A model generated the notes under the pieces. That model searched no databases and was not told where the DNA came from. It worked only from the letters and a program-made list of their open reading frames with translations. DNA of 64,000 nt from Azolla caroliniana (lineage: Eukaryota; Plantae; Polypodiophyta). The translations under genes were made by a program, and so were the position numbers. Positions 39,381 to 64,000 of this stretch are shown piece by piece (positions within the stretch are counted from its first letter, which is position 1; each line of letters starts with the position of its first letter). Where the stretch lies: assembly GCA_043228905.1 (NCBI GenBank), contig JBHGNT010000011.1, positions 18,166,001 to 18,230,000 of the forward strand. Direction: 5' to 3'.

Positions 39381-42300
39381 AACCTTATCTATGTGTAGAG
39401 GAGATAAGGTTGTCTTTTGGGGCCTACCCCTTCTTGTCATGACCAATGTAGCAAGATAAGGCTGAGTTGGAATTACTCTTTTTCAAAACCTCCGTCCTCC
39501 ATCCTCTACTCTGGAACACCAACTACATTATTGATTGGGCCACTCTAACGTCATCAAAATTCATGAATTTGTAATATCTCGTTGTACATCCCAATACTTC
39601 ATATCGAACCTTTGATTTACTTTACTGTTTTGCTTACTTTTTTTCTTTACTAAAGAATCGTACGATGTTTCAAATTCGAAACCTATTGAGACGTTTTTCC
39701 ACTATCAAGATTTTGCACCAACTTAATCTCTTGTGTTGATTTAAGTTCCAACGTTTTAATCTACAAATTTTCAGTTGGGTTGTGGTTTCAACCAAGGTTG
39801 TCATAAGGCATCTTCTCATTTTGATTTCTGGCAAAACTTAATCTTTAGCTTTGATTTGCATCGACATCGTATCCAAGAGGGAACCATGCCACCAAATGTA
39901 CTATCGTCTCACTGATTGATAATTGTTGACAGCAAACCTAAACATTTAATGCCTCATGGAATTCAAACTCATGCAATGCTATTATAATACTTCTCGACAA
40001 TGATTATAACCAAGCTTAATGCCCACAATAGATATATGTTTTGTCATATTGGAGAAAATTATATCAAATTGGACACAAACAAATTCACAAGACATATTCT
40101 CGCCATGGTCCCTGCATTACTAATTAGGATTGAGATTTTTTGCAAGACAAGGGCGTGAATACCCATCTAGATATGATGGGGGAATGGGGTTGCTAATGGG
40201 TTCATTTTATTTTCTAGATGGTTTTCCAAAATATTGATGATTAGGGCCTAATTTGGCTATCATTTGAGACATACAAGATCCACCTCAATATTAACTAATT
40301 TAGGTTAGTTATCACGTACCTAGGAAAGTCAAGTAGATTCAATGTAATGAAGTTTCGGAGGTGAACGAGTCTCTACATACCAATATGCTATATATCATTA
40401 GTTCATAAACCCCTCACACTTATTCCACCTTAAAACATTTTCTCCATCACTCATGCACGGGAAGTGGGGTAAGTTGCACATGGTAAATTTGTGTATAAAT
40501 TCTTCTTGACCCCACCACATCAATTTCTCCTCCAATTTATCTCATTTCCTAATGGAAAAGAAACAAATCATTAGTTTTATAATGGAGTTTAAAATTCTAC
40601 TATAATATTCTCCCACATTTGAGCCTCTAAATTTTAAATACCTTCCCATTGAAAAAGCTATGACTCGACATTTTGCCAACATATAAGTAATGGATCATGA
40701 TCACTCCTCGGTTTTAGGAATTAAAACAATCCAAGGCACGTTAGTGTTTTGGAATTCTACATTATGTCAACAATTAACCATTTAATAGACTCTTTTCATT
40801 GTACTAGCATCTCAAAGAGAGCAAACTAGGTTTGAAAAGAACAATGACACAATGATTAGATGAGACTAACACTAATATTAGAGATTGCATGGCCTGCATC
40901 CATGAGCTTGGAAAGAGTTCTGCAAGGTATTGTGCCATTCATGGGTTGCGATAACATGATCATTAAAATGTTGAGGTGTCGAGGTGTAGTGTTCCCTTTA
41001 AAGAGGAATTTTGTTTTGAAAACAAGTTGCCAACTTGCTAACGTAGGTATCGTAATTGTCCTAAAAGAAGAGAAGAGAAGAGATTTGGCATGACATGCTT
41101 AAAGTGTTTGTATTGTTTTCTAGAATGTAGTGGAACTTTTGCATATTTTGTCCCCTACATGTGTACATAATTATAGGTTTTTTCCCGAAGGTTTTTATCA
41201 ACTATTTGTTTTCTTCTTTAAGATAGTATTGGGCTTGTAACCAATAATCGGTGATCGTTTTCCCACTCTCCATAATAAGTTACCTTACTTTTCACTTTTA
41301 AAATAAAATAAAATAAAGATTCACCTTGGTATTAATGGAAAGATGCCCAAAGGCATACAACGAATTCATGCAGTAAATTATAACCCTCATACCCACATCA
41401 ACCAACATGTTGAGTATCAAAAGTGCTCATGTCGAGTACCCTACTTTGCACTTTAGTAAGAGATTATTGTTGATACTTTGTTTGTTCATTATACATATAT
41501 CTTTGTAATCCAATTATGTCGTTCGACTACCTAACAATATGACTTCTGAACAATTTTGCAACATTCTTGCTATCGCTTTTAGTGGTTGTATTGGTTCTAC
41601 GGTCTCTCTTGGTTAATTGTAATGTTGTATGGGCTCCATCTATCTTCCATTGTTGCATCTATTTATGTGGATGTGGGTGGTGGTATTTATACTTATACAA
41701 CTTTATGGTTATTTACATACATAGCCCTCATGGGGCACATTTCGACTATTTACAAATATAGTCTGCCGAGTTGGCTATATCCTCGATTTCGGCTTCGGCT
41801 TCGGCCTATCAGCCTCGACCGAGTTACTCATCAACTCGGGTCTTCTCTTCCCATCCGGAGTATTAGAGATCTAAGTACTAAAGTAAGCTTAAGATAAGGA
41901 TAAACAAATGATAGATAGAAAGGAGAAAGAGAAAGAAGGGTGCCGATCCACCCGACCACCCCTGAGCGAAGGGATCGAGACGGACTCGAGCCTCGATCGG
42001 CGTCCCATACCACCACCGTGGCATCGAGTCGTACCTGGTGCTGGCGCGCTCGCTACAGGAGTTGACCCACCACAAGAGCAAAGTCTCAATGTAGTCAAAA
42101 AGATGATGAAATGAGGGTAGTTAGGCCTCTTATTTATAGCGATAACTTAGCGCACTTACCCGTAGACAATGTCTTAGAATTGTGAGGTACACGTAAAAAT
42201 ACCTTCTGTCCAGGTTTGAATACACGAGGTTGCCTATGATGATCTGCATAAAAACGCGCTCTATCTTGAGCTGTTTTTATATTATCTCGTGCAATATGCA

Positions 42301-45300
42301 ACATATCTTGCATATCCCGAAGAAAGTTTTGTGTACTTCGCAACTCATCATGATGTATATTAACATCAATCGGGGCTCGTGGCTGAAAACCATACATCAA
42401 CATAAAAGGACTATATCCCGTCGACGTATGCTTGGAGCTGTTATAAGCAAACTCCAAAATTGGGAGATAACGTTCCCATTTTGTTGGTTTTGCACCAACG
42501 TATGCTCGAAGCATGTCCTCGATAATTTGATTTACTCGTTCTGTCTGTCCATCAGATTGAGGATGATTCGTGGAGCTCATGCTCAACGTAGTTTCTAACT
42601 TCTTAAAGACTTGCGTCCAGAAGTCACTAGTAAACTTTGGATCTCGATCACTCACGATATCCATCGGTAACCCATAAAAACGAAACAATTCGTCAACGAA
42701 TTGGTAAGCCAATTCAGGAGCTGTTACCGTGGTTTTAGTAGCAATAAATCTGGCCATTTTAGTTAGTCGATCAACGACAACCTAGATGGCATCATGACCT
42801 TTTTGGGTGCGAGGAAGGCTAACAATAAAATCCATGGATATACTTTCCCACTTATTATTGGGAATGTCCAAGGGATGTAAAAGTCCTGCGGCTTTAAGTC
42901 GCTCGGCTTTGTTAACCTGACACTGGTGACATTTAGTCACATAGCTATGTATGTCAGGACGCATCTTAGGCCAATAAAATTGAGTGGAGATGAGAACGAG
43001 TGTACGATGTATTCTAGGGTGCCCTGCTGAGGGTGCATCATGGCATTAAAAAAGAATCCTCTTTTTGACCTCGGGTAAATCTGGAACACAAACCTTCCCA
43101 TTACGATAGAGTAAACCGTTAGCAATGTGGAAGTATTCCTTCGAGGATGTGGTGATGTCTGTTCCAGACTCAACTCTTGCCCAGTATTTTGCAAAATAAT
43201 TGTCATCAGGATACTTTCCTCGAAGGTGATCATAAAGATCTGATGTTATTTCAGTGAAGCTAAGCATGTTAACTTCACGGATGCGACTTAGTGCATCAAC
43301 GACAGTGTTCATGGAACCTTTACGATATTGTATGGAAAAATCAAAGTCCTGGATGAGATCAGCCCATCGTGCCTTACGACCTTTCAGGTCTTGTTGGTCA
43401 CAAAAATATTTCAAGGACTCGTGGTCCGTAGTTACCACAAAGCGATTTCCATAAAGATAATGGCGCCATGTTTTGAGCGCATGTATAACTGCAAATAATT
43501 CCTTTTCTTGAACGATATACCGACATTGAGCAGAATCAAGTTTCTTACTCTCGAATGCTATTGGTTTACCATCTTGATACAAGACAACACCTATCGCATA
43601 ATCGCTTGCATCAGTTTCAACCTCAAAAGGTTTTGAAGGATCAGGTAAAAGAAGTGAAGGAGCCTTGCAAACCAGGTCCTTGAGTTCCTTAAAGGCGAGG
43701 TCTAGTGTAGCATTCCACACAATAGGTTTTGTAGACTTACGCATTTGACCTTTTAAAAGATCAGTAAACGACGTCGTTAATTGGGAGTAATTACGAAGAG
43801 ACTTTCGCAAAAACCCGACAAAACCAAGGAATGATCGAACTTCTCGAATATTCCGAAGAGTGGGCCAAAGCTTGATTTTCTCAATGCGAGAAGGATCAAT
43901 TTCAACTCCTCGTTCGGTTATGAAATGTCCAAGATAAGTAATTGATTTCTTGAAGAACTCACATTTTGAGATCTTTGCATAAAACTGTTTGTCACACAAT
44001 GTTTGTAAAACAAAGCGGACATGTCTCTAAGCATGTTCTTGTAATGTACAACTATAAACTAAAATATCATCCAAGAAAATAACGACAAATTTTCCAAGTT
44101 GTTCTCGGAAAATGTCATTCATTTCTTGTTGAAAAGTAGCCGGAGCATTGGTCAAACCAAAAGGCATAACCAAAAACTCGTAATGACCATAGCGCGTACG
44201 AAATGCCGTTTTAGGAACATCGTCCTCACTTATTTGTATTTGATGGTAGCCAGTACGGAGATCAAGTTTCGTAAAATACCGAGCTCCTTGGAGACGGTCA
44301 ATTAGATCGTCAGCCCGGGGCAATGGGTACGAATTCTTGATCGTCACTTTATTCAAGCGTCGGTAATTAATACACATACGCCATGTGCCCTCTTTCTTTA
44401 TAACCAAGAGAACTGGTGCACCCCATGGAGATTTACTATAACGTATATAACCCATTCGTAAATATTCCTTGAGTTGCTTAGATACCTCATCTTCTTCGGA
44501 TCGACTTAAGCGATACGGAGGTATAGTTATTGGTGCAACAACAGGTACAATATCTATACGATGGTCTATATTACGTTTAGGAGGTAACCCATCAGGTAGT
44601 TCACTTGGAAAAACATCATGAAAATCATTTAAGATTTCATCAAGTTGTTGTTGTTCAAAATATGTTAATTGAACCGGGACATTATCGATATTGTAAACTT
44701 GAATGTCCGGATCAAGTACACAATAAAATAACGTAGAACAAGACAACTCGGATATTGATGGACACGAGGAAACAATCGAGAGGGATTGTTTTTTTACACA
44801 TTGAATAAAATGCGTACAATCGTTCAGTACAAAAGAAATGGAATGGCGAACCCAATCAATAAATAAAGAAGAGTTTTTATTATAAAACCAGGGATAACGC
44901 AGTATTACATCAGTGGTACAAAGATTCATTACATGGAAGTCTACTTCCTCTATATAAGTATCAATAGAAATTCCTAATGAATGAATCGCCCCGTTGATGT
45001 ATTGTACTCTTCCATCAGCCAAGTGCACTGTGTAGGTGTGATCACTTACGGTGGGTTGGATTCCCCATATCTGAACCAAACGATCATTCACAAAATTGTG
45101 TGAGCTTCGCGAATCAAATAAAAATTGTACGGGAGATCCATTGATATACCCGTTTGCACGTAGTAAATCATTGGGACCCAATACATAGTGAGGGAAAGAA
45201 CATTGACAATTACTTAAATGATGTGTATAGACCTGAAGGACATTAGGAATCTGACCTTTATGGTCTGTAGCTTTAGCTTTGTTGTCGTGCTCTTTCCGTT

Positions 45301-47360
45301 GGAGATTTCGACATTGATATTTTGTATGACCCTTCTTTTTGCAGAATACGCAAAAAGGATGTTGTCGCTTACAATCGCGATCCAGGAATTCGTTGGGTGT
45401 CTTGCGTTTCCCAACAAATTGCGACTGCTTAGTCCCGGGCGCTTCGTTGGGTTTGTTGTGGCCCTTCTTCGAAGTGCGTTGATAGCGAAGATCTATTTCA
45501 ACGGCCTCTTCGAAGGATTTTGGATCCTTATCGTGCACTATCCAGTGATAGTTCGAATTGGGGATGCCATTGACAAAACAAGCTATCAACCAATTGTCCC
45601 CTTCTAGACCCGATTTTTGGATTTGGGTTCTAGCATGGTGAACATAGTCTTCTAGCAAGGAAAATTTCCTGCTAGAGAGGTTCATTAAAGCTTGTGCTGC
45701 CTCGGTTCGAGAGGGAGGTTGCAGAAATTGGCCCTTAAAAACCGTGACAAAATCTGTCCAGGTATCGGGCAATTTCCCCATAGTACGGAGCCCACGCCAC
45801 CAGGCAGCGGCCTTACCCCCGAGTTCTCGGCCGACATATGCAATCTTCGTACTATCTGGCGTGGGATAGAGCTCAAAATGAGACTCCCATCGTCCCAGCC
45901 ATGTGCAGATTGCTTCTTCGATTCTTTCCTTTTTGTCTCCCGCAAATGGCTTAACGACAAATGATGGTTCACCTTGTCGCTCATCAGGTCTATTAGTCTC
46001 ACGTTGTAGACTAATGACACGTGTCTCAAGAGCACTCTGAGATTGCCGAAGTTCGGTCATTTGTTGAGCGGTGAAACTAAGGTATTGGGTTATTTGTGCC
46101 AAATACATCTCAGTGGACATTTGTCCAGGAGGATTCCCTTGAGTTCCTTCCGCTTGAGCGGATGACATCGGATCGTTAATTTGAGCCATTAAAGATTATT
46201 TCTGGAAAAGAAATAGGATAAGGTCAGAGAGATAGTCATAACATCATGTCGTGATGTAAACATATCATGGGCAAACATTAATCGATATCATGATCTCACG
46301 TCAATACCCCTCTAGACGTATGAGATGAGGTTCAAGATCAGGTTACTATAGTAACACAAAGGTGTTTTAAAAACCATGGGGGTGACAAATAAATGTCTTT
46401 CCCTGATCTCTATATCGATTTTTTCATGGTGGCTCCCTGAGGCTCAACCATGTATGTTCGCGTCATGAATAGTTTATACACGAAAAAAATGTAAACAATA
46501 AACTATGTTTCGGTGCCCACATATGTGGTTTCGGCTCTTTAAGTCCTATTACGAGGACCCCGAGGTGCACTTAGACCTTAAGTCTAAACATGTGTTATAG
46601 TCATATGTATCAAGGATGTTGTATGGTCTTGGTCATATTTGAACTCGAGACCTCGAGAACAAATACATTAAACACTTGAACCAACCAAGTAAGTTGCTCG
46701 TCTTGAATGCTTAATGTTTGATGTGTATAAGAGATATGCGAGATCATATTTGCTTTTTCTAAAAGAACATATATGTCAAGGGTCCTTATTTCGCCCTCAT
46801 TTACCAAAACTATGTTGGAATGTTACCTAACCTCAAGTCTCGTAATTACGATGGCATACGCCAAAGTGCAACCTAATTGTCAAGCCAAATGAGCCCTCGT
46901 TTCGTAGTAGGCTCACGTGGCCCATCACATGGTCACGTCATTACGAATGCCTCTCGTAAGAACGAGCTCATGGTGGCATCGTATCCATGTAACGAGGGAG
47001 GGATGTTGGATACGTGTGTCATTGGAGCGACCTCACTTGAAATGGGTCAAGCCCTACGTACTCAACATCATTATGGCTATAGGTGTTTCTTTACGTAACG
47101 AAATCGAGGTCATCAACAGGGTTGTCAACAATAAAAAATTGTTGAAAAAGGGATGGTGACAACGCCATTCTCACAAAAATGTGAGGACGGCCACCAACAT
47201 CCTTTTCCTGACAAGGACAACTTTCGATATAATCACGTAATAACGAATATACACATATGTTTACTTATCACATATATACGACCAAATACGTATATACGTG
47301 ACCACATATGCCTATATTAACATATCGTTATATTAAATAGCCACAAATGATGTGATCGAG

Positions 47361-47620
47361 ATACGTAATCGAGGTATATACCTCTACGCACACGAAACAT
47401 CCACAAATAAGAGATCATCGTAATACGCAATTGAGGTATTGACCTCTTACGCATACGAGACCAACCGCATATCGTTTACAACAAATCAAGGTATTAAACT
47501 CATACGCAAACGTAACATATGTTCGTGAACGTAATACGTAATTGAGGTATTAACCTCGTACGCAAACGTCACTCATCACATATTATTAATATGTCAAACG
47601 AGGTATTGACCTCGTGCACA
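47361..47620 (-). repeat. Array of five palindromic GAGGT-N4-ACCTC units in the retrotransposon leader
   Basis: Cores at 47371, 47433, 47488 (degenerate), 47544 and 47600, spaced 55-62 bp apart. Confidence 0.75.
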
Positions 47621-48269
47621 TATGTAAACGTTTTAGATAATCAATTAAAGACCACTACAACATCATTGACTTAATGAAAAAAAATGACATATAAACTAAA
47701 CACATGATTAGATGGGAGAAGAGGGAATAGAAAGAAAAATTATGGAAAGAGTTACCGAAGTTCTTTGTTGATCATTGTCTGGATCAAGGCCGATCGCACA
47801 ACGATCGATTAGCATCAATCAAAAGACAAATGAAAAACAAAGAAACATTAGTACATAAATCTGATACCAAATATTAGAGATCTAAGTACTAAAGTAAGCT
47901 TAAGATAAGGATAAACAAATGATAAATAGAAAGGAGAAAGAGAAAGAAGGGTGTTGATCCACCCGACCACCCCCGAGCGAAGGGATTGAGACGGACTCGA
48001 GCCTCGATCGGCGTCCCATACCACCGTCGTGGTGTCGAGTCGTACCTGGTGCTGGCGCGCTCGCTATAGGAGTTGACTCACCACAAGAGCAGAGTCTCGA
48101 TGTAGTCAAAAAGATGATGAAATGAGGGTAGCTAGGCCTCTTATTTATAGCGATACCCAAGGCCCCTAGGCAAATTCACACTTTACCTAATGGGTTGTCT
48201 CAATCCCGAGGATTAAAAGTAATCCTCCCCTTCTTTACACTCTCCTTTAACCCTCACACTTATCCACGT

Positions 48270-48815
48270 TGTCGCGTTGCTACGCGCGTGCGTGGAGAAA
48301 CGAGGCGGGACCACCGGGGTCTCGAACCGAAGAGCAGGTGATAGGAGGGGAAAGAGAAAGAGAGAGACGACCGGTTACGTGTGAGCAAAGAAACACAGGG
48401 GCACGCCCCGTCAGCGCAGAAAAACACGAATGGACACAGAGACAGAGAGACACGAATGTTTGTATATTAACAGATGACACCAAAAACAACAGAGCACGCG
48501 AGTGGTTACAACCAAACAGGCCGGCGAACAGATGCCGATGCCTGTTCGTCTGCGCACGAAAGGGGATAGGATGGAGGTGCTGCCGGAAGCACACGGGCGT
48601 TCCTCGAAGCAGCGCGAGCCTCCCGAAAACCTGTAGAGAAGAGCAACAGAGAACAGACAGAGGGGAAGCGTTCGGTTACGGTCCGACAGCACTTCGTCCT
48701 CCTCAATGCGTCAAGAAGGGAGCCGTCTCCCTCCTTTACTTCCTACCTACCGAATCTAACTACCCGGATATGCCTTTGTACTTAATTCCCTATTATATAC
48801 ATTAAATTCACGACA
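48270..48815 (-). mobile_element. Solo LTR related to the Trp-primed gypsy family
   Basis: TGTCG..CACGACA ends and 4-bp TSD ACGT (48266-69 and 48816-19). Shares the blocks 'ccggcgaacagatgccgatgcctgttcg' and 'ggaggtgctgccggaagcac' with the 27499 LTR. Confidence 0.9.
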
Positions 48816-50198
48816 ACGTGTATAGAATACTACGGTAAATTCTCACCACGGGATATTATATGGTCATGCCCGTAACACGGAGGGACCTGTTTCCCAACAA
48901 ATCATATGTCGGCTTTGTAGCCAACCTAATTGGAATTGGTGTACCCTTCGAGTCGAATCGGTGTGACCGATTTGTAGAGGATGTCGTAATCCATGGTCCC
49001 ACTCACATACCTTAGTAGTCGCTTAACACAATCGTGATGAATGGCACATAGAGTCTGCATGAACTAGTTAAGGAGGCCGACAGAGTAATTGAGATCAGGT
49101 TGGGTAACAGTGAGATAAATAAGGCTTCCAACTACTTGACAATACGCAGGGACTCGACATCTAGCTTTAGGTTTCATTCGAGAGGGGTAGCGAGGCTCAC
49201 ACTTTGTCATCCCAAATTGAAAGAACATATTGAGGATATAGTGTCGTTGGGAGATCATGATGCCGCCAAGAGTCCGAATTACTTCTATGCAGAGGAAGTA
49301 ATGTCACTCCTCCATCTCTTTCATTTCGAATTGTCTGGAGAGTAGTTGTTTGATATGTTCGATATTTGCTAAGTGCTCTCCTCCAATGACCAAGTCATCC
49401 ACATATATTATGATGAATAGCTGTCCTCTAGGGTCGTTCCGGATGAAAAGAGAATCATTCACATATATTATGATGAATAGCTATCCTCTAGAGTTGTTCC
49501 GGATGAAAAGAGAATCATCCACATATATTATGATGAATAGCTTTCATGCTTTCTGGAGTCATTATGACATTTTAAAGCTGATTTGATGAAGATATTGGAT
49601 AATCTTTGAATGCCAGGCTCTAGGTGCCTACTTGAGGCCATAGAGAGGCTTTTTGAGTCGGCAAACAGCAGTTGGATGCGTACGCGACTTGAATTCAGGT
49701 GGTTGTACCATGTACACATCCTCATCTAATTCGCCTTGGAGAAAGGCATTCTTGAAGTCCATCTAATGGAGGTGCCACCCATTTGCTACTGCAAGCGGAA
49801 TCACGATTCGAATGGTAGTCATCTTTGCCACCGGGGCAAAGGTCTCTTCGTAATCGACCCCGTGTGTTTGCGCATACCCTTTTGCCACAAGCGGGGTCTT
49901 CTACTAATTGGTGGTGGCTTCGGCATTGTGCTTCACCTTGTATATCCATCGACATTTGATTGTCTTTTGATGGGGTGAAGAGGGGATGAGATCCCATGTC
50001 TCGTTCCTGGAGAGTGCTTGCATCTCCTCATTCATCGCTTCGACCCATCGTGGGTCCTTCATGGCTACGGAAAAATTTTCCGGCTCTCGGACTGTCGCCA
50101 CCTTCATCATAAAGGCATAATGAAATGCTATATAGTCATTGTAGCCGAATCGACTAATTACATTCTTTTCTCGGATGGAGCGACATGGTTGTTCACTT

Positions 50199-51018
50199 TG
50201 TTGGGAGACAGGTCCCTCCGGATGGGAAGGGAGAAGAACAGTGCTGATGAACATACTCGGCCGAGACCGAAACCGTGTGAGGAGTACCCAGCTACGGAGA
50301 GCTGGATGGTGCAGACCCGGTGAGAACCGGATGAGGAGTACCCGGCTACGGAGAGCCGGATGGTGCAGACCCGGTGAGAACCGGATGAGGAGTACCCGGC
50401 TACAGAGAGCCGGATGGTGCAGACTCGGTGAGAACTGGATGAGGAGTACCCGGCTTCAGAGAGCCGGATGGTGCAGACCCGGTGAGAACCGGATGAGGAG
50501 TACCCGGCTACGGAGAGCTGGATGGTGCAGACCCGGTGAGGAGTGCTCACCGGATGAAGAGACATATTCGTAAATATGTTTCTGAGAGTCCATCATGGCT
50601 ATATTTGTAAATAGCCGAAAAGTCATATTAGTATAAATATGACTTAGGGCAAACTTTTAGTGGTTTTTTTTAGGTTGTTAATTCTTGTTGGTGCAAGAAG
50701 AGAGAGCGCGTAACAGTGTACAGAGAGTGAGAGAGAGAGGAAGAGGTCGTTGCCTCTGTTGTAACCGCCGCCTGTGGCGAAGGTCGTGAGCGCGAGGTCG
50801 TTGCCTTCGTGAGCTCACTATTGTAATCATTGTGATATAGTGATAGTTTGGAGTCTGTGGACTCCCGTGGTTTTTCCCTCTCAGGGTTTTCCACGTTAAA
50901 CATCCTGCATTTTTTTTTCTCTCCTTTGTGTCGTGTTTTTCGCTTCCCGTTTTCTGGGTATGATTCTAAGCTCGGTTGTGGCCGAGCGTTGCGTATAGGG
51001 AGCGTGCAGTTCCTGTCA
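50199..51018 (+). mobile_element. Solo LTR (copia-like), 820 bp
   Basis: TG..CA ends; TSD CACTT at 50194-98 and 51019-23; TATAAAT at ~50632; 'gggttttccacgtta' U5-type motif. Confidence 0.9.
50279..50543. repeat. 54-bp tandem repeat, ~5 copies, within the solo-LTR U3
   Basis: Unit gaggagtacccggctacggagagccggatggtgcagacccggtgagaaccggat at 50279, 50333, 50387, 50441 and 50495. Confidence 0.95.
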
Positions 51019-53210
51019 CACTTGTCTTCATGAACGCTTTCTTGGCTCCTGGTGTCCTCATGATAGGAACATCCAATCCACCATACTCATTGTCGAGCGA
51101 GTGAGCCGATTTGTTTCCATCTTAGTCTTCATGCTCAGGCATTTTGGCCTCTCCTTTGTCCGATTTTAGACTTGGCCGCGACATGCTGCGATTGCTCGGT
51201 GGCTTCTGTGGTCCACTCAATTTGGTTGAGATCGGACTTTCCTTTGGCGTGAGCTTTAGTCCTCCGAGGCTATATTGAAGTCTGTTTCGATTGGATCAAA
51301 TGGAGTTGGGCCGAATAAGACATCCCTACTCATGCATACCTTCTTGATGGAGGGGTTGAAGCACTTATACCCCTTTTGTTTGAGTGAAGACCCCAATGAT
51401 ACACTTCTCCAATTTTGGATCAAGCTTTTGCCGCTTTTCATCGGGAATGTGTACAAACGCGATCAACAGAATATCATGACGTGGGATAGATCCGACTTCT
51501 TCCCATAGAACTTCTCGCGGGGGGTGATATTGTGCACCACAGATGTTGTGCATCAATTCATCAAATAGACGATCGTGTTCACCTCTTCAGCACGGTATGA
51601 TTTTGGCAGAATTTTCTCATTCATCATTACCCTTGCCGCCTCAAGGATATGCCAATCTCCTTCTCGGTAAAGGTTGGGAGTTCAATGACGACTCCTTTCG
51701 ATTGCATTCCTTTGAGCTTCTAGAGATTAATGTGGCCAATTCTTTTGTGTCATAGCTCTATGTCGGCATTGGCTTTATGGCCCTTGGCAAACATTGTTGT
51801 TTTCATCTCGTGAGAATCAAGAATGAACATTCGGCCTTCTCTTTGTCCACGATCGATAATTCAACATTCTTTTTCGATGAAGCACCCTTTGTTGTTGAAC
51901 CGAACTTGCATGCCTTGTTCCACAATCTGGCCGACCGAGACCAGATTCTTTGTTATTGTTGGAACATGCAGGATGTTCTTGATGTAGGTTTGGTTGCTCT
52001 CTTCTCCAAATGGGACATTGTCGACATGCTGAATGGGGTGAATTGTGTCATCCCATGTTTCCACATAGTTGGGTCGTTCGGGCTTTTGAAGCTCTCGAAA
52101 CCAATCTTTATGAAACGTCATGTGATTGGATGCACCTAATTGGACAAACCTTACATCTTTTGAGTTAGAGGTGTTGGTTGGGTTGGAGGTCGACATTGAG
52201 TTCGCTCTGTGCCTAATTACAAACATTCCGCCACGATCGTCTTAGTTGGAGTTTGAGGCATAGTTGGTGAGTTGTTGGCCTGTGGAGGCCGACTCACTCT
52301 TCTTTTTGAGATACTCTGCATCGTAGTGGCCGAATTTGCCACAATACCCGCACTAGGCGGAATTGTTTTGTCGGTTTAGTCCGGCATGATTGCTCCCCCT
52401 TCTACTAAACGCTCTGCCTCACGCGTTTGAAACGTCTTGCCGATAGTACAAGTTGTGTTCTTGGGGTTGTTCTTGGTTGTGTCAGCCTTGGCCAAATCAA
52501 CCTCTTCTTCCACGACTTTGTCCCCTTCCTCTATCCAAGTTTGAATTGAGCATTGTAGAAAGTAGCGTGCGGAAGCAAGTATGAAGACAGAACAGAGGAA
52601 GGAAACTCAGGTTCAATGGAGAGCTTAGGCTTACACGGTATACGCGGGAGAGACAGAGAGAGAAACACAAAAAACTATATTCAACAATAATACTCAATCT
52701 CTGTACATAAGACATGCTCAGTGAGCACTTTTATACAAGTCCTAGAAGGACTGACCGAAGTACTGACAGTACTTCAATGCTCATCAAGAGCCCCTACACT
52801 AACTCCCAAATATATTCCTCACGGAATATCTTTCCTAACGACCTCCCGGTTTATGTACTCGGCCTAACCGATCGGTCCCAACCGATCCGGTCCTCGGCTT
52901 CTTTGTTAACTCTTAGGGCCGGACAATGTCCTAACACAGGGTGTCTACGGAAGACACTTCCCCAAAGGGTGTTACGGCAACCGGATTAGACTTCAACGCT
53001 TAATCCTACTTGATTAAGTTACTTATTATGATCGTCTTTCAATATAACAATTAAGACAGAATGGCAATTAACACAGAGAGATAACAACGCTTAAGCTTTC
53101 ATTAATTAACCGCTCCTGATTACATTGTATCCGGACTCCTTTGCCGGCCAGTAACACATGGCACGCCCGTGGGACAGTACCTTGTACGTCGAATCCACAA
53201 CCGACCCTTG

Positions 53211-56200
53211 CTATTCTTCGTCCAAAATGTCCAGAATGCTTTGTTCGAGAGGCTCCAATGGTTCATTTGGAAGTGGTTGTTGTTGTTGTTGCTGCTCTGT
53301 TGATGTCTGCTGCGGCGGGTCCGTTGGTGCTTGTTGCGGCTGCTCCTCCGTTTGTGGCTCTGACACCAGCGTCTCCATCGTTGCTCCCTGCGTCGTAGTG
53401 GTCTCCGGTTGACTGGTTCCCAGCTGGCCCTCAGCCGGCGATGGTTCCTCATCACTAAGGTTAACCGTTGCCGCTTCCCATGCTTTTTCTTCCCGAACCC
53501 GGGACCGCTCGTAGCTTTCAAACTGGATTTGAGCGTCCAACCTATCATTGTCTAGCTGAGCTACGAGCTGCCTGACCTGCGCCAGTTGTTCATCTACCAA
53601 GACTTGGAAGTCGTCGGCCAGCTCGTCCCGTATGGCGGTGAAGTCCTCGGAAGTCAATGTATAACAATCATCTCCTTCCTTCCGCCGGTTTGCCACATCT
53701 GCCCGTAGCAACTGGAGTTCCGCCGCGTTTTGTGCCCACTTTGTCCACCATTTTACGGAGCTTTCATCAATTAAGTGTTTTGTCTGATTCAGCCATGCCC
53801 AGAGGATGGACTGAATCCGGCTCGTTCCCAATTGCGATTTGGTTTCCGCCGCTTTGCCGTTCCTCCTTCAGTTGTTTGATGATTTTGACGTTGTCCTCCG
53901 CCTGCGCCTTGTAATGCGTCAATTGCCTTTGATATGTGCTTTGTAATTTCTGCAATACTGTTGACGCTCTCTCTTTGTCTTCCTGCTGCTGCCTCTGGAG
54001 CTCCATCCGGACCTTCTCCACCTGGTCCAAGCGTCTTGTATTTTCCGCCCGTTCGTCGGCAATCGCCGTCGCGGCCCGATCAACTGCTTGCTGGAGCTCG
54101 ACCATCCGTTCTTTATGCTCCGTTTCCAACCGTTTCTAGTCCTGGTGCAGGTGCTCAAAATCATCCGTCTTTTGCTTGAGCCGTGCGTTGATCTGACGAC
54201 AGGCCCGGTCCTCGCGGTCCTTCTGCTAGCGGAGCTCTTCCTTTAGCCGTTCAATCTCTGTTTCCGCCGTTTTCCGCAGCTTGTCCTTTTCCTGCAGCAC
54301 TTTGTCTTTCTCCTCCTTTAGCCGGTCGTACGCTTGATGGCCTTTCCGGAGGTTCTCAGCAGTCTTCTTTAATTCGGCTTCGGCCGCCGTCTTCAATTCT
54401 CGTTCACGGCTCCTTAGCGCTTCTTGTGCGACAAGTTCATCTCTCAATTCCGCAAGCTCCTGGGCTTGCGCCGCATCTCTCGCCGGAACGGTTTCCGTTG
54501 CCGGGGTCTTATTGCTATGTACAAGTCGTTCCGTTTCTTTATTCTGTACACTTACCGGAGTCACCGGTGATTGGATCCGTATTTTGGCCATCTCTGTCGT
54601 GACCTGATCCAAGTCTTTTTCAAGGCACCGGATGCTGGACCGGGCCGTCTCTAGTTGTTCGGTTGTGACGAGCAACCGTTCACTTTGCGCTCTTTCTTCC
54701 GCCTCAATATACCCCACTGCTTCGGCTATCTGTTCGCCTATCCACCGGAGCCACAGGCTACCGGTGCCTTGTTGTGCTTTCACGGAGGTTTGACAGATGG
54801 GCTCACTTATAGAGGGGTGGTCCCGCCTGGTTGCGCCGAGTTGCAGTTCCGTTTCTGCCCGTGGACCACCCTGCTGTCCTGGTTCCCCTTGCGCTTCTTC
54901 TTGGATGACCGAGGGAGGCTGCATTGACCTTTCCGACTCTGGCAGGATGGGACTTGCCGGTGTTGCCGGTGGTGCCGGGGCTTCTGTTTCCGGTGCCATA
55001 TGCACCGGTTCCGGTTCCTTCCTTGGCGTGGGAGTCTCATTAAGGGGAGCCGGTGTTCCCTCCATCTGAGGGTCCGAACGTTTCCCGACTGTCTCAACGG
55101 TCCTTGCCGACGACCGTCGCTGGAGGTGCTCTGTGGGCTACTCCTCTATTTCCTCCTCCTGAACTCCGGCATTGAGTTTTGCCGCCAAGGGGTCCGCTTC
55201 TCTGTTCACCGGTCGGCGGAGTGTGACCTTTACGGGCCGTGCCGGTGGTTCCTCCTGCGTCTCCGTTGGGGGCTTCCGGCTGCCGCTTCCTGCTGCCGCC
55301 TATTCTGCATCCGCCGCCTTTCCCTTAGTGGCCTTAGAGGCCAACAGCTGTTGCCGTTTGGAAGCCGTCCTTGGGGTGCCGTCCGCCACTCTTCCTCGCT
55401 TCTTGGGCTGAACGGGCTGGACGGGTGGCACAAGCAAGGTGAGCCACTGCGTTACGGTGTGCCATATCCTCCGTCCGTCTTGGCCTTCTTTGCCGTCTTT
55501 GCCTCTGACGATCTCGATCGCCGCACACAACCCATCTGCGATCAATACCGGCCAATCCACCTTGATCCCTTCATAGGTGGCGATGATCATCCCTGCCCGG
55601 TTCTGCGGCATGACAGGGGGTCTAGGGTACACGTGGCCGTATTCATGGAGCACACGAGCAATTTCGCGGAACAGCATATCTCCGCCGCCCTGTGTCCGGT
55701 AGCCCTTGCTAGCTAGAGCCATATCCTCCGTCCGTCTTGGCCTTCTTTGCCATATCCTCCGTCCGTCTTGGCCTTCTTTGCCGTCTTTGCCTCTGACGAT
55801 CTCGATCGCCGCACACAACCCATCTGCGATCAATACCGGCCAATCCACCTTGATCCCTTCATAGGTGGCGATGATCATCCCTGCCCGGTTCTGCGGCATG
55901 ACAGGGGGTCTAGGGTACACGTGGCCGTATTCATGGAGCACACGAGCAATTTCGCGGAACAGCATATCTCCGCCGCCCTGTGTCCGGTAGCCCTTCTTTG
56001 CCGTCTTTGCCTCTGACGATCTCGATCGCCGCACACAACCCATCTGCGATCAATACCGGCCAATCCACCTTGATCCCTTCATAGGTGGCGATGATCATCC
56101 CTGCCCGGTTCTGCGGCATGATAGGGGGTCTAGGGTACACGTGTCCGTATTCATGGAGCACACGAGCAATTTCGCGGAACAGCATATCTCCGCCGCCCTG

Positions 56201-56467
56201 TGTCCGGTAGCCCTTGCTAGCTAGAGAGTACTCACCAAAATACCTGATGAGTTGCTTCGGGGTTGGATTGTCGATCGTGAGTATGCCTCCCTCCGGAAGG
56301 CCTGTTAACGCTCGAATCGCCTCTGCCGTTATGACCTCTGTATCAATTTCCTTGATCACTTTGTCGGCTTCTTTGTGTGGCGGTACTTTCATCATCATCA
56401 AGAAGCCCTCGAGCCTGTGTTGCTTCAGCCATGTCTTGGCGGCTTCTAACAGCGTTTGCGGGTCCAT
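53211..56467 (-). pseudogene. Extra ORF 3' of pol (unknown function, long coiled coil), disrupted
   Basis: Collinear fragments 55931-56467, 55300-56043, 54226-55065, 53767-54129 and 53211-53831; Pro/Glu-rich linker and E/K/Q/R-rich heptad stretches; ends 35 nt before the tRNA-like site. Confidence 0.7.
55461..56226. repeat. Near-identical ~250-bp triplication inside the extra ORF
   Basis: Copies at ~55461-55718, ~55749-55995 and ~55992-56226, plus a ~30-bp partial copy at 55719-55748. Confidence 0.9.
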
Positions 56468-59400
56468 GTCTGTGTCGAGGTCGGATGGCGGTGGCGAGGT
56501 TGGATGGTGATGAGAGTGAGGTTGAGAAAGAGAGAGATCAGAAGGCGGGGGTTCTCTGTGCGTAGGTTCTCATCTGATGATCTTGCAGCGTCTTGGTGCT
56601 TCTGTGCTCCTTGGTTCGCGAAAGTAGAGGGTCTCTACGCGCAGTGGTTTTTGTTTGTGCATTCTGGCGCCTTTTTCGAGTGTGTGCATGTCGTGTACTA
56701 AAATAGCATTATGTCTTGTGGTGGCGCTTTAATGGCCCACTACGTACCTTTTCGCTCCTCGCTCTTTCATCCATTCATTCCTCGCTTTTGCATGATTGTT
56801 TTTTTTTTTTTTTTTAGTTATTATTATTATTAGTGTGACGTCACTTGTCCGTTGGTCCTCTCGGACCCTTACCGGCCTCATTCTCCCCAGTTACCGGCTC
56901 GCCTTCTCTGCCGTCTTGGTGGTTGCCGTTTCCCTCACTGGTGTCGGTCCTTTGCTCAAATGGGTTCTTAGGCATCGGTCCTCTAATGCCTTCAACCGGA
57001 ATCCGTTGACCCATTTGCCTAGCACTTCGCCGGCAAGTGTCCCTAACTAGTAGGACCCATTATACTCCCGTGTTAGCCAATACGGTCCGGTCCATCTAAA
57101 CCGTAGTTTACCCGACATCTTGCCCATCCGGGTTTGGAATACTAACACCGGTTTGCCGATTGCGAACATTTTTTCGTTACCTTTCCTGTGCCGGTCGACA
57201 AATGCTTTCCGTCGCCGTTGCTCCAATTCTAAATGTAGGATGCTGGCCAGTCGTTGTTCCTCGAGCTCATACAGCGTTGTCAACCTTATTGCCTCCGACT
57301 CCTTCTCGTTCAGCCGTTCTCGTAGCTGGATCCGTAAGCTGGGTACTTGGAATTCTACCGGCATTACCGCCTCGAGTCCGAACGCTAACCGGAACGGTGT
57401 TGTTCGGATGCTCGTTTTGTATGTCGTCCGGTATGCCCAAAGCGCGCTATGTAGCTTTGTGTCCCAATCCGTCCGGTTTTCGTTGACGATCTTCCGGAGG
57501 ATATTCTGGAGCGTCTTGTTTGTTGATTCCGCTAAACCGTTCGCCTGTGGATAGTAAGGTGTGCTTCGTTTGTGGACAACGGCATAGAATGTCGTCAGGC
57601 TTTCCACTACTTGGCCAAGAAAGTGCCCCCCTTGGTCACTTATTAATTCAATTGGGCATCCGTAACGGCACCAGATGTATTCATATAGAAACTTCATCGT
57701 TGACGCAACGGTGTTATCCCGTAAAGCTTTGGCCTCCACCCATTTCGTGCAGTAATCCGTAGCAACGATAACGTATCGATTACCCGTTCTCATTGCCGGT
57801 GGCTTGAAAGGTCCTACAAAGTCCAGCCCCCACTTCTGGAATGGCTCGAGTGGTAGTACCGGCTGGTGTGGCATACGAGCCTGCTCCGTTGGCTGGCCCA
57901 TTCTCTGGCATAGGTCACATTCTTTTGCGTACCGTACTGCATCTCTTAATGTCGTTGGCCACCATAGGCCACTTTGCCATATTTTTCTGGCCGTCGCATC
58001 TCCGGCATAGTGACCGCCGGCAACTCCGCAGTGGTTTTCCCTCAGTATCAATTCCTTTTCATCGCTGCGCACCGCCCGTCTCCATATGCCGTCCGCGCCC
58101 TTGTGGTACAGTGTGTCTTGCAGTAAGCAGAAATGTCAGCTTTGCACCGCCAGGCGTTTCCGTTTGTCCCGGTTCATCTCTTCCGGAGGCAGTCCTGTGC
58201 TCAGAAACTAGTGCATATTTGTCAGCCATTTGTCTTCCTGTGCCACCGTCTCATCTGCTGCCGTCTCCGTAGTGACTCGAAACATCTCTGCATCCGGAAA
58301 CTCATCCGCTACTCCGTCACCCGTCTCTCCGAACTCTAATCGGCTTAAGTAATCCGCCACGGCATGACAGTAAGGTCCACCGGGCCAATTTTCCGGTGAG
58401 TGACGCTTTGGACACCAGGTAAAGGAGTGCCGAATGATCTACATGGAAGGAAAACTCCCTTCCCAATAAGTAATGTTGAAACTTTGTCACACTGTAGATC
58501 ATCCCTAGAGCTTCCCGTTCTGTAGTAGAGTAGTTCCGTTCTACTTGGGATAGCTTCCGGCTGGCATAGTACATTGGCCGGTACCACTTTGGTTCCGTAA
58601 GCTGCATTAGTACGCTTCCGATTGCGATGTCGGAGATGTCCACGAACACGTGAAATTCTTTACTCCAATCCGGAGGCTACACTACCGGTGCCTGCAACAA
58701 TAGTACCTTGAGGGCCCTATATGCTCTATCCTCGGTGTCGGTCCACTGGAATGGTGTCCGATGTACGGCGGCATGCAACGGTGTAGCCAGGTCGGCCAAG
58801 TATTGGAGCATCCGGTTGTGCCACCGGATCTGGCCTAAGAACCGGCTTAATGCCTTTGCCGTTACCGGCGCCGGTGCTTCTAATATGGCTTTCACTTTGT
58901 CCGGGTCGACTGCGATACCTTCCTGGCTCACAATATGTCCTAATAGAGTTCCACTGGACACGCCAAATACACACTTTTCCGGATTCAAGCTTAGCTAGTA
59001 CGCTCTACACTTTTCTAGACAAAGACGGAGATGCTAAAAATGGTCCTCCTCCCGGCTAGAGACAGCGAAATCGTCAAGGAAAACCTGCATAAAAGCCGGT
59101 ATATATTCACCAAAGATTTCCATGATGATTCGTTGAAATTTTGCCGGTGCCGTTTTGAGTCCGAACATCATCACCACGGCCACAAACACCCCCCATTCGG
59201 TGACGAATGTCGTTTTCTCTTGGTCGTCGGGGTGCATCCGGATCTTATTATACCCGTTGAATCCGTCTAGGAAGCTATAGACCTCATGGCCGGCGACATC
59301 ATCCAACACTCCATCTGTGAACGGAAGTGGAAACGCATCTGTTACCGTAGCCGCATTGAGTTTCCGGTAGTCCACGCAAACTCGAATTTTTCCGTTCTTC

Positions 59401-62400
59401 TTCGGTACGACTACGATCGGGCTCAGCCATGTCGCTTTCTTTACCGGACGGATAAAGCCAACTCTTATCAGTTTGTCGATTTCCTCCTTGACCTTGGCGG
59501 CATAATTGGGATTCATCCGGTACCGTCTTTGTGCCACTGGTTTTGCGTCCTTGCTCAAGTGCATCTGATGCTGGTATAACTGAGGGTCGAGTCCTCGCAT
59601 ATCTTCGTATGACCAGGCGAACACATCGCGGAATTCCGTGAGAAGTGTGATCATCGCCGTTTTGTCTTCGGATTTCATCTCCTTGGCAATGTGCACCGGT
59701 TTTGCTTCGTCTGTGGTGCCTAGGTTCACCTCTTCCAGTTGCGACGCTTTCACACGCTATGAAACGGCCATTTCCCGTTCCAACGCTTCCTGCGCTTGCC
59801 GTAACTCCTGGATTGCGTCTTTATCTGGTTCTGCTTCAGCCTCTTCCGGTTGCGGTAAGTATGGTGCTACTGCTTCGGCAATGTCAATTTCGAAGAGGGG
59901 TATGATCTTCGGGTTTTCCTGTAGGTACTGAGCTTCTTCTTCGTTCGCTAACCCTTCTAGCATGTTGACGCATTCCGCATACAACGGTGTACATTCCTTG
60001 CCAGTGCTCGTCCTTGGTTGTGTTGGTACCCGTACCTTGGCTTTTCCTCACCGGAAGGTAATTATATTTTTTCGCCAATTCTGTTTGATATGTGCCGTTT
60101 TCAACCATGGCCGCCCCAGCAATAGCGGGTATGCGCCTTGTGCCTGTAATTGTAGCACTACGGCCGAGATGTGAAATGTATGACCGCCGACGTTGACTTC
60201 TAATTTCTGTATTAATCCTGTCGGCCGCACTGAGCTTGTATCGGCCATCCACAACCAGAACGAACACGGCTCCCACTCGTGGATTCCTAGGTCATCACAC
60301 GTCCGGAGGCTTATTACATTTACCCCAGAGCCTCCGTCTATAACTGTGCCGGGGAGTTCTTTCCCTTTTACAATGGTAGTGATTACCGGACTACTGGTGT
60401 CCACCACCGTTGGTCCCTCCTCCGGATTCGAGAAGAGTATCGGTGCCGGTGATGGTTCTCCTGCCGTCATGGCCGTCTTCAGTCCTTCTGTGAATCTTGG
60501 CACGAGTTGTAGGAGTCTTCCTAGTGGTAACGTAATCTAGCATTCTTGCAACGCCTGCCATGTCTCGTTCTCGGAGTGACTACCGCCGGCAAGCCCTGCG
60601 GTGTTCTCCTTTTGCCGTTGTAAGTCTATGACATTCTACTCGTTTGCTTTCTTTACCCATTCCGTTGCTTGTTTCCGGATGGTCTCCTATGTCTCCCATT
60701 CTTTGGCCATGCCCTTCGACCTTGTGGTCACCTGCTGCAGATCTGCCACCTCAGGGACTACCATATTTACCGCCGGTCGTTTTTCATAGCTCTTCACCGG
60801 GCATTGGTTACTATAATGGCCTTCCTGTCGGCAGTAGTAGCAGTAGGCCTTCCGGGTATTGCTAGATTCGGCATTGTCTGTTGTACCCGGGGCAGGTCCT
60901 ACGGTACGGGCGAGGTTTTGTACCGGTTGGCTGCTTGGAGCTCCTTGTTCCGGATCCCGGGGGTAGCCGCCTTTTTTAAAATGTCGTTTTTTGTTATAGC
61001 TCTTCTTATTACGGTACTCTTGACGGGGTTGCCCGTTATATCTGCCGTATTCCTCCTGTTGCTGACGATGCTCGGGGGAGTGCTCCCGGTCGTAATGTTC
61101 GTATCGTCTATTGTAATCTTGGTACCGATCATGCCGGTCATAGTTATCCCGCCGATCACCATACCAGACATCATTTTCCCGTCGATCGCCATGCCGGACA
61201 TCCTGTGTTGATCGGTCGCAATCCATTCGCCGCCAGCGTTCGTCTTCTTCATCCCGGCTGCTGCGTGGCTCAATTTGTCGGACGAGCGGTGCTTGCCGGT
61301 TCAACAGATTATACTCGCACCTATCCGTTGTATAGCTCTTGGATTGACAGATTACACATTGCGTCCTCATAGTGCATTCTAGAGCCGAGTGCCCGGCATT
61401 CAAGCAGGTTGTGCACTGTATTGCTTGCCGAAACCGAAGGTCTTCATCGAACGGTAACGCCCGTTGAAGTGCTCCCAGTGTGAGCCAGGAGCTTGTCTTT
61501 TTCATCTCTCTCACCCGGTCAATGACCTGGTCGATGGTACTTGTGCGGAAGTCAATTACCGTGCAAACCGTGCGTAGGGGTTCCCGGAGCGCGTTTAGGA
61601 ATATAGTCCGTAATTCCTCCTCCAGGGGTGCGCGAGCAAGCTGACTATGCATCCATTGAAACTGGATGACAAATTGGGGAATGCTCTCCCCTGCCTCTTG
61701 CCGGATGGTATAAAATAAGCCTACCATTATGGTCTGATCCACCTCCTTTTGAAAAAAATGCAAGAATTTAGCTTTAAATCTGCAAAAGTGTTGATGGTAG
61801 ACGGGTCCTGCGTCCGGCGCCATCTTGCTGCCGGTCCCTCCAATGTGACGCCAAATTCCGCTATCTTAGAGCGTTCTTCTTCCTCCGGGGTCAATCGCTG
61901 GGACACATGGTTGGCTTCCCATGTCTGTTCAAAGGCGTGCACATGAGCTTCCGCGTCCGGATCATCTCTATACTTGGAGTACTGGAACGGCATGTCGTCG
62001 TCCGGTATCGGTGCGCAGGCTGGTAGTGTTGGTGCTCGTTCCAGAATTTTTTCCGGCGTCGGTTGTTTTTCCTCTTCCTTTGGTGACGGAGGCCTCTCCT
62101 CTTCGACTTCCGGTGTCAGAGGTCGCTCTTCCTCTACTGGTTCCGGGGGTTCCCGCGTTAGCACTTCCGGTTCCAGTGTCGGTAAGGTATCCGATCCTTC
62201 GTCCTCCGGTCTGCCCGAGGTTTCGTTGCTGCTACGGTAGTTCGTGTGCACGCTGAATTCCCCTTTGGAGTCCGATTCATATGCTAAAAAGGCTTCTGCT
62301 TCGCCTTCTCCGTTTGCCAACGCGTGGATAAGGGATTCGGTTTCCCGGAGGCTGCTTAGGCTGTTGTCGTCGTCCGGGTGCGATGTTTGCTGTAACCAGA

Positions 62401-62587
62401 GGGAGTCCTCCACTACTCTCCGGATTACGTTGGAAAATGAGCGATCCGTTCTAATTTCCTGCGCCGCTTGCTGGAAAGCCTCGCGTCTCCTTTGCCTTTC
62501 GGCAAGGCGTCAAGTTTGATCTGTAACCAGGTTGTGCGTTGATCTAGACATCCATCTGTGCTGTCGTTCGCTGCAAAAACAGGAATC

Positions 62588-62597
62588 GTGGTCGCCA
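62588..62597 (-). promoter_or_regulatory. Primer binding site, tRNA-Arg type (TGGCGACCAC)
   Basis: Lies 7 nt after the 5' LTR and complements a tRNA-Arg(UCG)-like 3' end GTGGTCGCCA (recalled sequence). Confidence 0.7.
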
Positions 62598-63183
62598 AAA
62601 ACTGTGTTAACTCTTAGGGCCGGACAATGGCCTAACACAGGGTGTCTACGGAAGACACTTCCCCAAAGGGTGTTACGGCAACCAGATTAGACTTCAACGC
62701 TTAATCCTACTTGATTAAGTTACTTATTATGATCGTCTTTCATAACACATGCGTAAGATATAACAATTAAGACAGAACGGCAATTAACACAGAGAGATAA
62801 CAACGCTTAAGCTTTCATTAATTAACCGCTCCTGATTACAGTGTATCCGGGCCTTTAAATAGGTTTCCGGTCTGTATTACAAAATGGTGCCATCCACACC
62901 TGTTCGGGATCGGTCCGGATCCGGAACGGCATACCGTTCCGGTCCGTCCGTCCACACTCATAGCTTAATTACAACCACATTCCTACTACTTAACTAACTC
63001 TCCGTTTCCCACTCTGAACTCCTTTGTCGGCCGGTAACATTCTTCAGCCGATCCGGCCGATGTTGAGCTTGTCTCTCAACACTCCCCCTCAAGCTCAACT
63101 TGAGGCTCTTCGGGATCTTCACAGCACCGGTTCCTCCTGGCTTCTCGCCTCGCTCACGCTCCTCGACCTGTTCGACTCCGCGC

Positions 63184-63903
63184 TGTCGGGGTTGCTACGC
63201 CCTTGCGTGTAGAAAGGAGGAGGGACCACGGGGGTCTTGAACCGAAGAGCAAGAGAGAGAGGAGTAAGAGAGAGAGAGACCCGATTACACAGAACCGAAG
63301 ATCCGATTGCGCAGAACCGACGATTGCACAGGGACACGGCCCAACAAACAGAGATCACAAATAAACGCCGACGCAGATGGACGCAACAACGAAAGATATG
63401 TACTTATGAATGCAAGAAAATAACAGACTAAAGTATTACAACCCACGGTGGGGCACGAAATAGATACTAACGAAAACGAACAGGGCGGCGAACAGATGCC
63501 GACCCCTGTATGTCGCGACGCACAGGAAGGGAAAACAGGTCGGAGGTGCTGCAGGACGCACTCGGGGCGTTCCACGGAACAGCGCAAGCCTCCTCGAAAC
63601 CTGCACAGGTACGCGATGGAGCAGAAGACAGAGAAAGCAGGAGTGAGAGAGAAGCTCCGAAATCGGTTCGGCAGCACTTCGTCCTCTCCGCGCGAGATAT
63701 CCCACTTCTATTCTTCCTCTTTCTTTTATAGCCCGTCAAGAGGCCGTTTGGCATTAACTGCATACCAACCGAATCTACCCACCTAGGATCCTCGTATGTA
63801 CCTACTTCGCCCTTAGGTACTTCTTGGCGCGTGTGTGCGTGTAGAGCCGTTTCCCCACGCCTTGTTCCTCCGATTTCTCTTGTGGGCGGTTTTCTTCACG
63901 ACA
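63184..63903 (-). mobile_element. 3' LTR (720 bp) of another member of the Trp-primed gypsy family; the element continues past the window end
   Basis: TGTCG..TTCACGACA, followed by tccgcccccacctaaccgcgcatccaccggcatgcgccaaatt, which is identical to the PPT/integrase end at 28138 onward. Confidence 0.9.
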
Positions 63904-64000
63904 TCCGCCCCCACCTAACCGCGCATCCACCGGCATGCGCCAAATTAAGTTGGCACGGAGAAAACCGGCCCGCCTTTACTCTTCGCCTGCCGGCCCTCCC

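Follow-up and report, generated by a model that had tools for sequence, protein, structure and literature searches.

In canonical Ty3/Gypsy retrotransposons such as yeast Ty3, two long terminal repeats (LTRs) enclose gag, protease, reverse transcriptase (RT), RNase H and integrase in this order, a tRNA site follows the 5′ LTR, and a primer end lies before U3, as described in the passages on these elements (PMC5371799, PMC3185511). The plus strand of Ty3 is started from a purine tract encoded by the element. In the passages that mention it, the polypurine tract (PPT) is the primer of the second strand (PMC6317226, PMC5371799, PMC3185511, PMC10886601, PMC2864245, PMC11963269), and the review passages, which give it this part in retroviruses as well as LTR retrotransposons, describe primer variation (whole tRNA, half tRNA, self-priming) for the first strand only. 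The element presented here occupies positions 52904–63039, coding strand minus, of a 64,000-nucleotide stretch of Azolla caroliniana DNA (contig JBHGNT010000011.1, positions 18,166,001 to 18,230,000; hereafter the window). It shares the organization of Ty3, but a pyrimidine-containing, CCA-ending copy of a tRNA 3′ end stands where Ty3 has its purine tract. The evidence consists of the anatomy of the element, the conservation of the junction, the tRNA match and a sense-strand TATA box. This plant Gypsy lineage has probably dropped the PPT and uses host tRNAs to start both strands. For the second strand, tRNA-Arg(UCU) would have its acceptor and T arms unwound on minus-strand DNA by a site that a hairpin splits, which would be a third way of beginning the plus strand among LTR retroelements.

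The closest likenesses are partial. The bipartite primer-binding site (PBS) of Ty1 and Ty3 resembles the window site in that the acceptor end and the T-arm are bound with a loop between them; it is complementary to the tRNA on genomic RNA and starts the minus strand, whereas the window site can pair with a tRNA only as minus-strand DNA and is located where the plus strand begins (PMC5371799, in the passages on this site). Helenus terminal-repeat retrotransposons in miniature are likewise LTR elements with tRNA-derived sequence. That sequence is described as lying inside the LTR with PBS and PPT retained, whereas in the window it lies outside the LTR and replaces the PPT (PMC10886601, in part). 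The self-priming elements Tf1 and Tcn1 also depart from the standard Ty3/Gypsy primers. According to the relevant passages the minus-strand primer is changed and the PPT is kept (PMC6317226, PMC2864245), whereas the window element has no self-priming complement: for the sequence after the 5′ LTR, no exact complement of 5–12 nt is found in the LTR. For the plant non-chromoviruses Athila, Tat, Phygy and Selgy, three primer types are given, all for the first strand, and the passages describe no tRNA site at the place of the PPT (PMC6317226). No description of a tRNA site replacing the PPT was found in full-text searches of the open-access literature.

The junction ahead of the 3′ LTR and its tRNA match

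The + strand reads TGGCACGCCCGTGGGAC at 53159–53175 and is preceded by CA (53157–53158) and the LTR end at 53156. On the sense strand the order ahead of the 3′ LTR is GTGGATTCGA-C-GTACAAGGTAC-T-GTCCCACGGGCGTGCCA-TG-[TGTTAC], where the square brackets mark the start of the LTR. The CCA-ending 17-mer (53159–53175, minus strand) is a copy, with a 1-nt gap, of the 3′ end of tRNA-Arg(UCU); it stands at the PPT position and is the predicted plus-strand primer site on minus-strand DNA. It is separated from the LTR by the 2-nt spacer TG (53157–53158, minus strand). The likeness to a tRNA reaches beyond the 17-mer. A small hairpin, GTAC-AAG-GTAC (53177–53187), and the T-arm block GTGGATTCGA (53189–53198) lie upstream on the same strand, and the hairpin divides the copy into the 3′ 17-mer and the T-loop block. 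The T-loop adenosine of tRNAs is usually methylated, and the split adjoins that position, where the T-loop meets the last 18 nt.

The 3′ end of a plus-strand primer sets the start of U3 plus the bases trimmed by integrase. After integration, the outer end of the 5′ LTR does not carry the 2-nt spacer that separates CCA from the 3′ LTR. A CCA exactly 2 nt from the LTR, with those 2 nt gone at the integrated outer end, therefore fits a primer end. Purines make up 9 of the final 20 nt ahead of the 3′ LTR. No canonical purine tract ends about 2 nt before the LTR, and the nearest run of at least 10 purines is about 340 nt away, within an open reading frame (ORF). The sequence-only reading, in which a CCA-ending, non-purine site 2 nt from the LTR replaces the PPT, is borne out on this point. 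The chance that this one position would show a gapped 17/18 match to some tRNA end out of 100 is roughly 1e-7. Rfam returned nothing up to E 10 over 52850–53400, and ARAGORN called no tRNA gene within the window.

Six other LTR elements (two in the window, L332, L336, L339 and L381) were compared as controls. None ends in CCA before its LTR, and four have G-rich or purine tracts. The LTR element at 41861–48155 has TA..TA ends, no clear target-site duplication (TSD) and 12 purines in the last 20 nt before its 3′ LTR; low purine content alone is therefore not distinctive in the window.

A pattern derived from the site matched 119 stretches of a viral sequence collection. In one of these (L068) the matched stretch forms the 3′ end of a tRNA-Arg(UCU) called by ARAGORN, with 17/18 nt and one gap, plus 10/11 nt upstream. 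In this tRNA, CCA follows the pattern match and GTGGGTTCGA precedes it, neither being part of the pattern. For a view of the host tRNAs, contigs of four public DNA runs from three samples were placed on a eukaryote-like tRNA-Arg(UCU) bait (L136:186-272). Contigs of tRNA-Arg(UCU) with ends near-identical to the site are present in three of these four runs, all of which hold the family; run X15 gave 0 contigs on the bait. In X4 the bait core is found at 40–50x the depth of flanked single copies. The match to tRNA-Arg(UCU) with a 1-nt gap, proposed in the sequence-only reading, is recovered in a called tRNA and, in near-identical form, in tRNA genes of runs that contain the family. A literature search found no printed plant tRNA-Arg(UCU) sequence, and a search on 10-mers of the site gave unrelated matches only.

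A co-fold of the L068 tRNA end with the minus-strand site predicts a 28-bp three-way junction with the hairpin looped out. The predicted energy is −33.8 kcal/mol, compared with −6.4 ± 2.8 kcal/mol for shuffled sequences (0/500 reach it), with RNA parameters and a match that is partly by construction. A variant at 53194 turns the T-arm block identical to the tRNA T-arm and switches a G-T pair with the tRNA to G-C or back; it accounts for 25–50% of the depth in 4/4 runs. In X5 (record 17) and X2 (records 1–2), LTR-like ends (..GTAACA plus 2–4 nt, then TGGCAC) enter an unbroken tRNA-Arg(UCU) copy of at least 40 nt. These joins may be traces of copied primer tRNA.

At the other end of the element, the PBS-like sequence TGGCGACCAC is found at 62597–62588 on the minus strand. 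It starts with TGG and is likely the minus-strand tRNA primer site; with its spacer CAGTTTT it spans 62588–62604. A normal PBS had been proposed here. A PBS-like site is present, but it lies 7 nt from the LTR and resembles a tRNA complement over about 10 nt. A pattern built on it matched tRNA ends of 11 kinds in 52 of 112 matches, none from the host; the non-host tRNAs are mostly Arg(UCU) (26/112) and Asp (10/112). A TATA-like box, TATTTAAAGG, is present at 62861–62852 on the minus strand. The relatives described below carry the TATA consensus on the sense strand in 10/10 cases and on the antisense strand in 0/10. A sense RNA is thus the likely template. On that RNA the 3′ site is identical to the tRNA and not complementary to it, so that a binding site exists only on minus-strand DNA.

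Conservation in relatives and in a distant family

Relatives were sought in metagenome contigs by means of a last-ORF alignment, so that they were not selected for the site; at least 16 loci were found. The junction count covers 12 of the 16 loci listed. L009, L012 and L013 end before the site and L006 diverges inside the T-arm block, and these were left out. The spacer TG precedes the LTR in 12/12 junction-spanning loci, a purine tract does so in 0/12, and CCA is retained in 11/12. A 19-nt stretch of the site is an exact match to the window in six loci, differs by one change in four and by three in one, and has a 14-nt deletion in one. Identity of these relatives to the window is 51–79% in the flanking ORF end and 44–55% in U3; overall it is 65–77% to the window and 65–94% among the relatives. 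Two of the checks laid down with the sequence-only reading, a search for a normal PPT in other copies and for retention of the CCA site 2 nt from the 3′ LTR, accordingly came out in its favor. Protein coding was considered as the cause of this conservation and rejected: about 40 nt are nearly invariant while the adjoining ORF is about 73% identical, and the frames across the site have no Pfam match.

In 4/4 public runs the summed contig depth (not a copy number) over 53174–53209, outside the LTR, is 4–7x that of the next bin, which indicates that more copies share the site than share its flank. No insertion filling the 1-nt gap is present at a 5% share among the variants listed for the runs, and the gap is filled in 0/12 loci. 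The region of the 5′ PBS has 25 nt identical in the four relatives in which it is intact (L001, L005, L010 and L016), and the 7-nt gap at 62598–62604 is kept in these four. The U5 end would consequently carry a longer overhang than the U3 end. In these same four loci the order is last ORF, site, one LTR and PBS, and three continue into gag; they are either collapsed assemblies or tandem elements sharing an LTR. No related element was found in the viral collection by integrase, integrase alignment or junction pattern.

A distant family, L320, was found by an integrase-alignment scan of genome contigs, in which 4 of the 14 genome-derived loci examined have a usable LTR pair. Its integrase is 59% identical to that of the window element, DNA likeness is limited to pol (about 66%), and its 1.6-kb LTRs are unrelated. 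Ahead of its 3′ LTR the sequence reads CATTTGTC-TC-GACAAATG-CT-CCACCAGGTGTGCCA-AG-[TGTTGG]. The hairpin (8 bp, in the same place), the acceptor letters and the spacer (AG) differ from those of the window, and CCA likewise stands 2 nt from the LTR. At the letters in which the two sites disagree, tRNA-Arg(UCU)-like copies in the runs vary as well. A purine tract is absent from L320 too, with 10 purines among the 20 nt ahead of its 3′ LTR. At the 5′ end an 18-nt PBS-like site beginning TGG lies 2 nt after the LTR, so that L320 has 2 nt at both ends. This is a candidate site of the tRNA-Arg type; of 49 matches to a pattern made from it, 0 are tRNA ends. L320 has its TATA consensus on the sense strand, the gag and pol frames are open, and the domain order is gag, protease, RT, RNase H and integrase. 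The pol frame continues for about 1000 residues past the integrase with no Pfam match.

The host contig of L320 (G001:C10) is 79 kb long, comes from a bacterial metagenome-assembled genome and joins about 22 kb of plant-type retroelements to bacterial genes; it is chimeric or contaminating. ARAGORN called no tRNA in four further stretches of this contig. In a quick integrase tree of 40 of the 120 listed homologues, the window element, L320 and two Adiantum nelumboides proteins fall within one 15-row clade (SH-aLRT 96, without bootstrap). This placement points to a fern-associated lineage, with Adiantum represented by proteins. The tRNA-tail junction is real and belongs to the lineage as a whole, in a Gypsy element that is in other respects an ordinary non-chromovirus.

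Proposed route to the plus strand and the alternatives

In the proposed route a first tRNA would prime the minus strand at the 5′ PBS of the sense genomic RNA. RNase H would then clear the RNA, and the minus-strand DNA would bare TGGCACGCCC-GTGGGAC, the complement of the tRNA tail. There tRNA-Arg(UCU) would anneal with its acceptor end on the 17-mer and its T-arm on the upstream block, the hairpin being looped out (28 predicted bp). RT would extend the CCA-OH of the tRNA across the 2-nt spacer into U3. RNase H would cut the tRNA off at the CCA/DNA junction, much as at a PPT, and integrase would trim the 2 nt. Annealing of a host tRNA to minus-strand DNA and priming of the plus strand from it is, judged from the sequences, a fairly likely course of events.

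Several points weigh against this reading. A tRNA annealed to DNA is itself a substrate for RNase H, and its survival until extension is unexplained; a bulge or the junction might protect it, which is a guess. The L068 tRNA is a prophage tRNA and a single one of the 119 matches to a pattern taken from the site itself, and a phage sequence resembling tRNA-Asp has almost the same end. Among host genes one clean end was recovered, present in all three runs; it has one mismatch with the site besides the gap, at a position where other tRNA bait records carry the G of the window site. The pairing with host tRNA-Arg(UCU) is thus a candidate at the level of tRNA type and not of the exact isodecoder. 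The 12 junction-spanning relatives are not independent, being mostly close kin from one set of assemblies. L011 reads TCA in place of CCA and L015 has lost most of the site; both may be dead copies. L320 has a weak T-arm block, lacks a clean TSD and lies in a chimeric plant/bacterial contig. Two of the six control elements are atypical and have no clear tract. PPTs need not be all-purine, as stated in a passage of PMC3185511.

In one alternative the primer is the element's own RNA: the tRNA-like stretch would fold or otherwise resist RNase H and be cut after CCA, as an unusual PPT. A second tRNA would not be required, and in the predicted fold of the sense RNA (65 nt, −20.5 kcal/mol) a stem takes in the T-arm block and the hairpin. 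PPT sequences vary (PMC3185511, in part), and one window element has a poorly purine-rich primer site. Such a primer is unlikely, since it leaves unexplained why 15–17 nt are identical to tRNA-Arg(UCU) ends in two families with unrelated hairpins and LTRs. A strand corresponding to the 5′ side of the acceptor stem is not found nearby in the window or in 4/5 relatives checked, the single candidate (L005) being 241 nt away. The insert breaks the T-loop, so that no tRNA-like fold for host nucleases is predicted, and in L320 the outer stem is weak. It is distinctly improbable that the site acts instead in tRNA capture, as a decoy for tRNA fragments or their target, or in end-to-end pairing of the RNA, while something else nearby primes the plus strand. 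The Ty3 PBS is split between the 5′ and 3′ RNA ends according to a passage of PMC5371799, and base pairing between the sense copy and the 5′ side of an acceptor stem is conceivable. In Ty3, however, the segments are complements of the tRNA, whereas the window site has the sequence of the tRNA itself. The 5′ PBS appears to correspond to another tRNA end, which would leave the copy no part in opening the minus-strand primer. No alternative primer candidate is present at the LTR edge, and a function of this kind would give no reason for CCA to be held at 2 nt from the LTR in the two families.

The sequence-only reading had also allowed copying from transcripts of either polarity; the 3′ site would then be an ordinary first-strand PBS. 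In the window the 3′ site does look more like a PBS than the 5′ site, with 17 nt at a distance of 2 nt from the LTR compared with about 10 nt at 7 nt, and the two ends are alike (AACA-CA in the window, AACA-CT in L320). The PBS of Ty1 and Ty3 is not recopied from the tRNA, as a passage of PMC5371799 has it; the unfilled gap (0/12) is compatible with a first-strand PBS and is therefore a weak argument against one. This option is disfavored and very improbable, because the TATA consensus lies on the sense strand alone in the relatives and likewise in L320, whose 5′ PBS-like site is of full length. On the + strand, too, a PPT is missing ahead of the opposite LTR (11/20 purines), so that two tRNA primers would still be needed. 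That the window copy is a rearrangement or chimera, with a foreign PBS joined backwards to the 3′ LTR, is scarcely credible. The copy is decayed, with stops, an LTR deletion and a triple repeat, yet its TSD is clean, and the idea is refuted by the run contigs (high depth in 4/4 runs), by the same junction in 12/12 relatives and by L320 with its open gag and pol. Priming of the plus strand by a host tRNA remains the probable reading.

Anatomy, classification and meaning of the element

The element is a single Ty3/Gypsy insertion. The 5-bp TSD TTCTT flanks it at 52899–52903 and 63040–63044, and the empty insertion site is present in contigs of 4/4 public runs. Both LTRs have TG..CA ends. The 5′ LTR (62605–63039, minus strand) is 435 bp long and holds the TATA-like box. 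The 3′ LTR (52904–53156, minus strand) is 253 bp long, being short of 167 nt of U3 (including the TATA box) and of a further 15 nt; a full-length 3′ LTR is present in other copies of the family. The two LTRs differ by 6 mismatches over 253 aligned nt.

All coding features are on the minus strand, as had been read from the ORFs and the TATA-like box, and the Pfam domains agree. Gag consists of two overlapping frames with a zinc knuckle (60687–62509). It is followed by an aspartic protease (60048–60536) with a weak Pfam match (E 0.01, below the cut-off), RT and RNase H (58317–59756; interrupted by stops in the window copy) and an integrase with H2C2 and rve domains (57047–58135), in the order known from Gypsy elements. 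Pfam matched nothing in 54 further frames on both strands. An extra sense ORF region lies 3′ of the integrase at 53211–56569, with frames at 55931–56569, 54226–55137, 53767–54135 and 53211–53867; it is broken in the window copy and has no Pfam match above the cut-off. Its last frame (53211–53867) has 37 relatives. Look-alikes in the Atlas score below 0.9 and serve as a lead only, among them one of an ATHILA cluster at 0.86. Within this region a near-perfect triple repeat (55460–56215) consists of three nearly identical 248-nt copies, two of them 100% identical; it is either a very recent duplication or an assembly effect.

The insertion lies in another high-copy repeat (52700–52903 and 63040–63100). 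This repeat is likely a Copia LTR, with a purine tract on the minus strand at about 63082–63094 and Copia-like RT frames at about 49904–50455. A Gypsy-type element at 27499–34513 is flanked by the 4-bp TSD ACGG and has 639-bp LTRs and a G-rich PPT. Pieces of LTRs related to it lie at 48283–48801 and 63474–63993. The frame at 38537–39085, among the repeats, is presumably a host reading frame of J-domain type, with an HPD motif.

No chromodomain match follows the integrase in Pfam searches of 13 plus 54 window frames or of the L320 pol frame, so the element is not a chromovirus (Tcn1 included). Only RNase H of the RT type, and none of the archaeal type, was found in the window or L320 frames, which excludes OTA/Tat elements (Ogre, Retand, TatI–III). 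Phygy and Selgy have a 4-bp TSD and no extra ORFs, whereas the window element has a 5-bp TSD and about 3.4 kb of extra ORFs; the lack of a chromodomain, the length of about 10 kb, the 5-bp TSD and the extra 3′ ORFs are shared with OTA elements, as far as the passages describe them (PMC6317226). In the same passages, tRNA-Arg PBSs are listed for Ogre, TatIII and Retand, and the Athila PBS is mostly for tRNA-Asp or tRNA-Asn. Within OTA, a non-chromovirus with a 5-bp TSD, extra 3′ ORFs and no archaeal-type RNase H agrees with Athila. The element is Athila-like by this absence and is not placed by a tree of RT, RNase H and integrase.

Elements of this lineage can be discarded or given the wrong orientation by annotation tools that rely on PBS and PPT to tell the strand. 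If the proposed route is true, a natural, high-copy lineage that primes its second strand from a tRNA would break the PPT rule. The choice and sparing of primers by RT/RNase H would become testable, and both replication steps of the family would be exposed to host tRNA levels and tRNA fragments.

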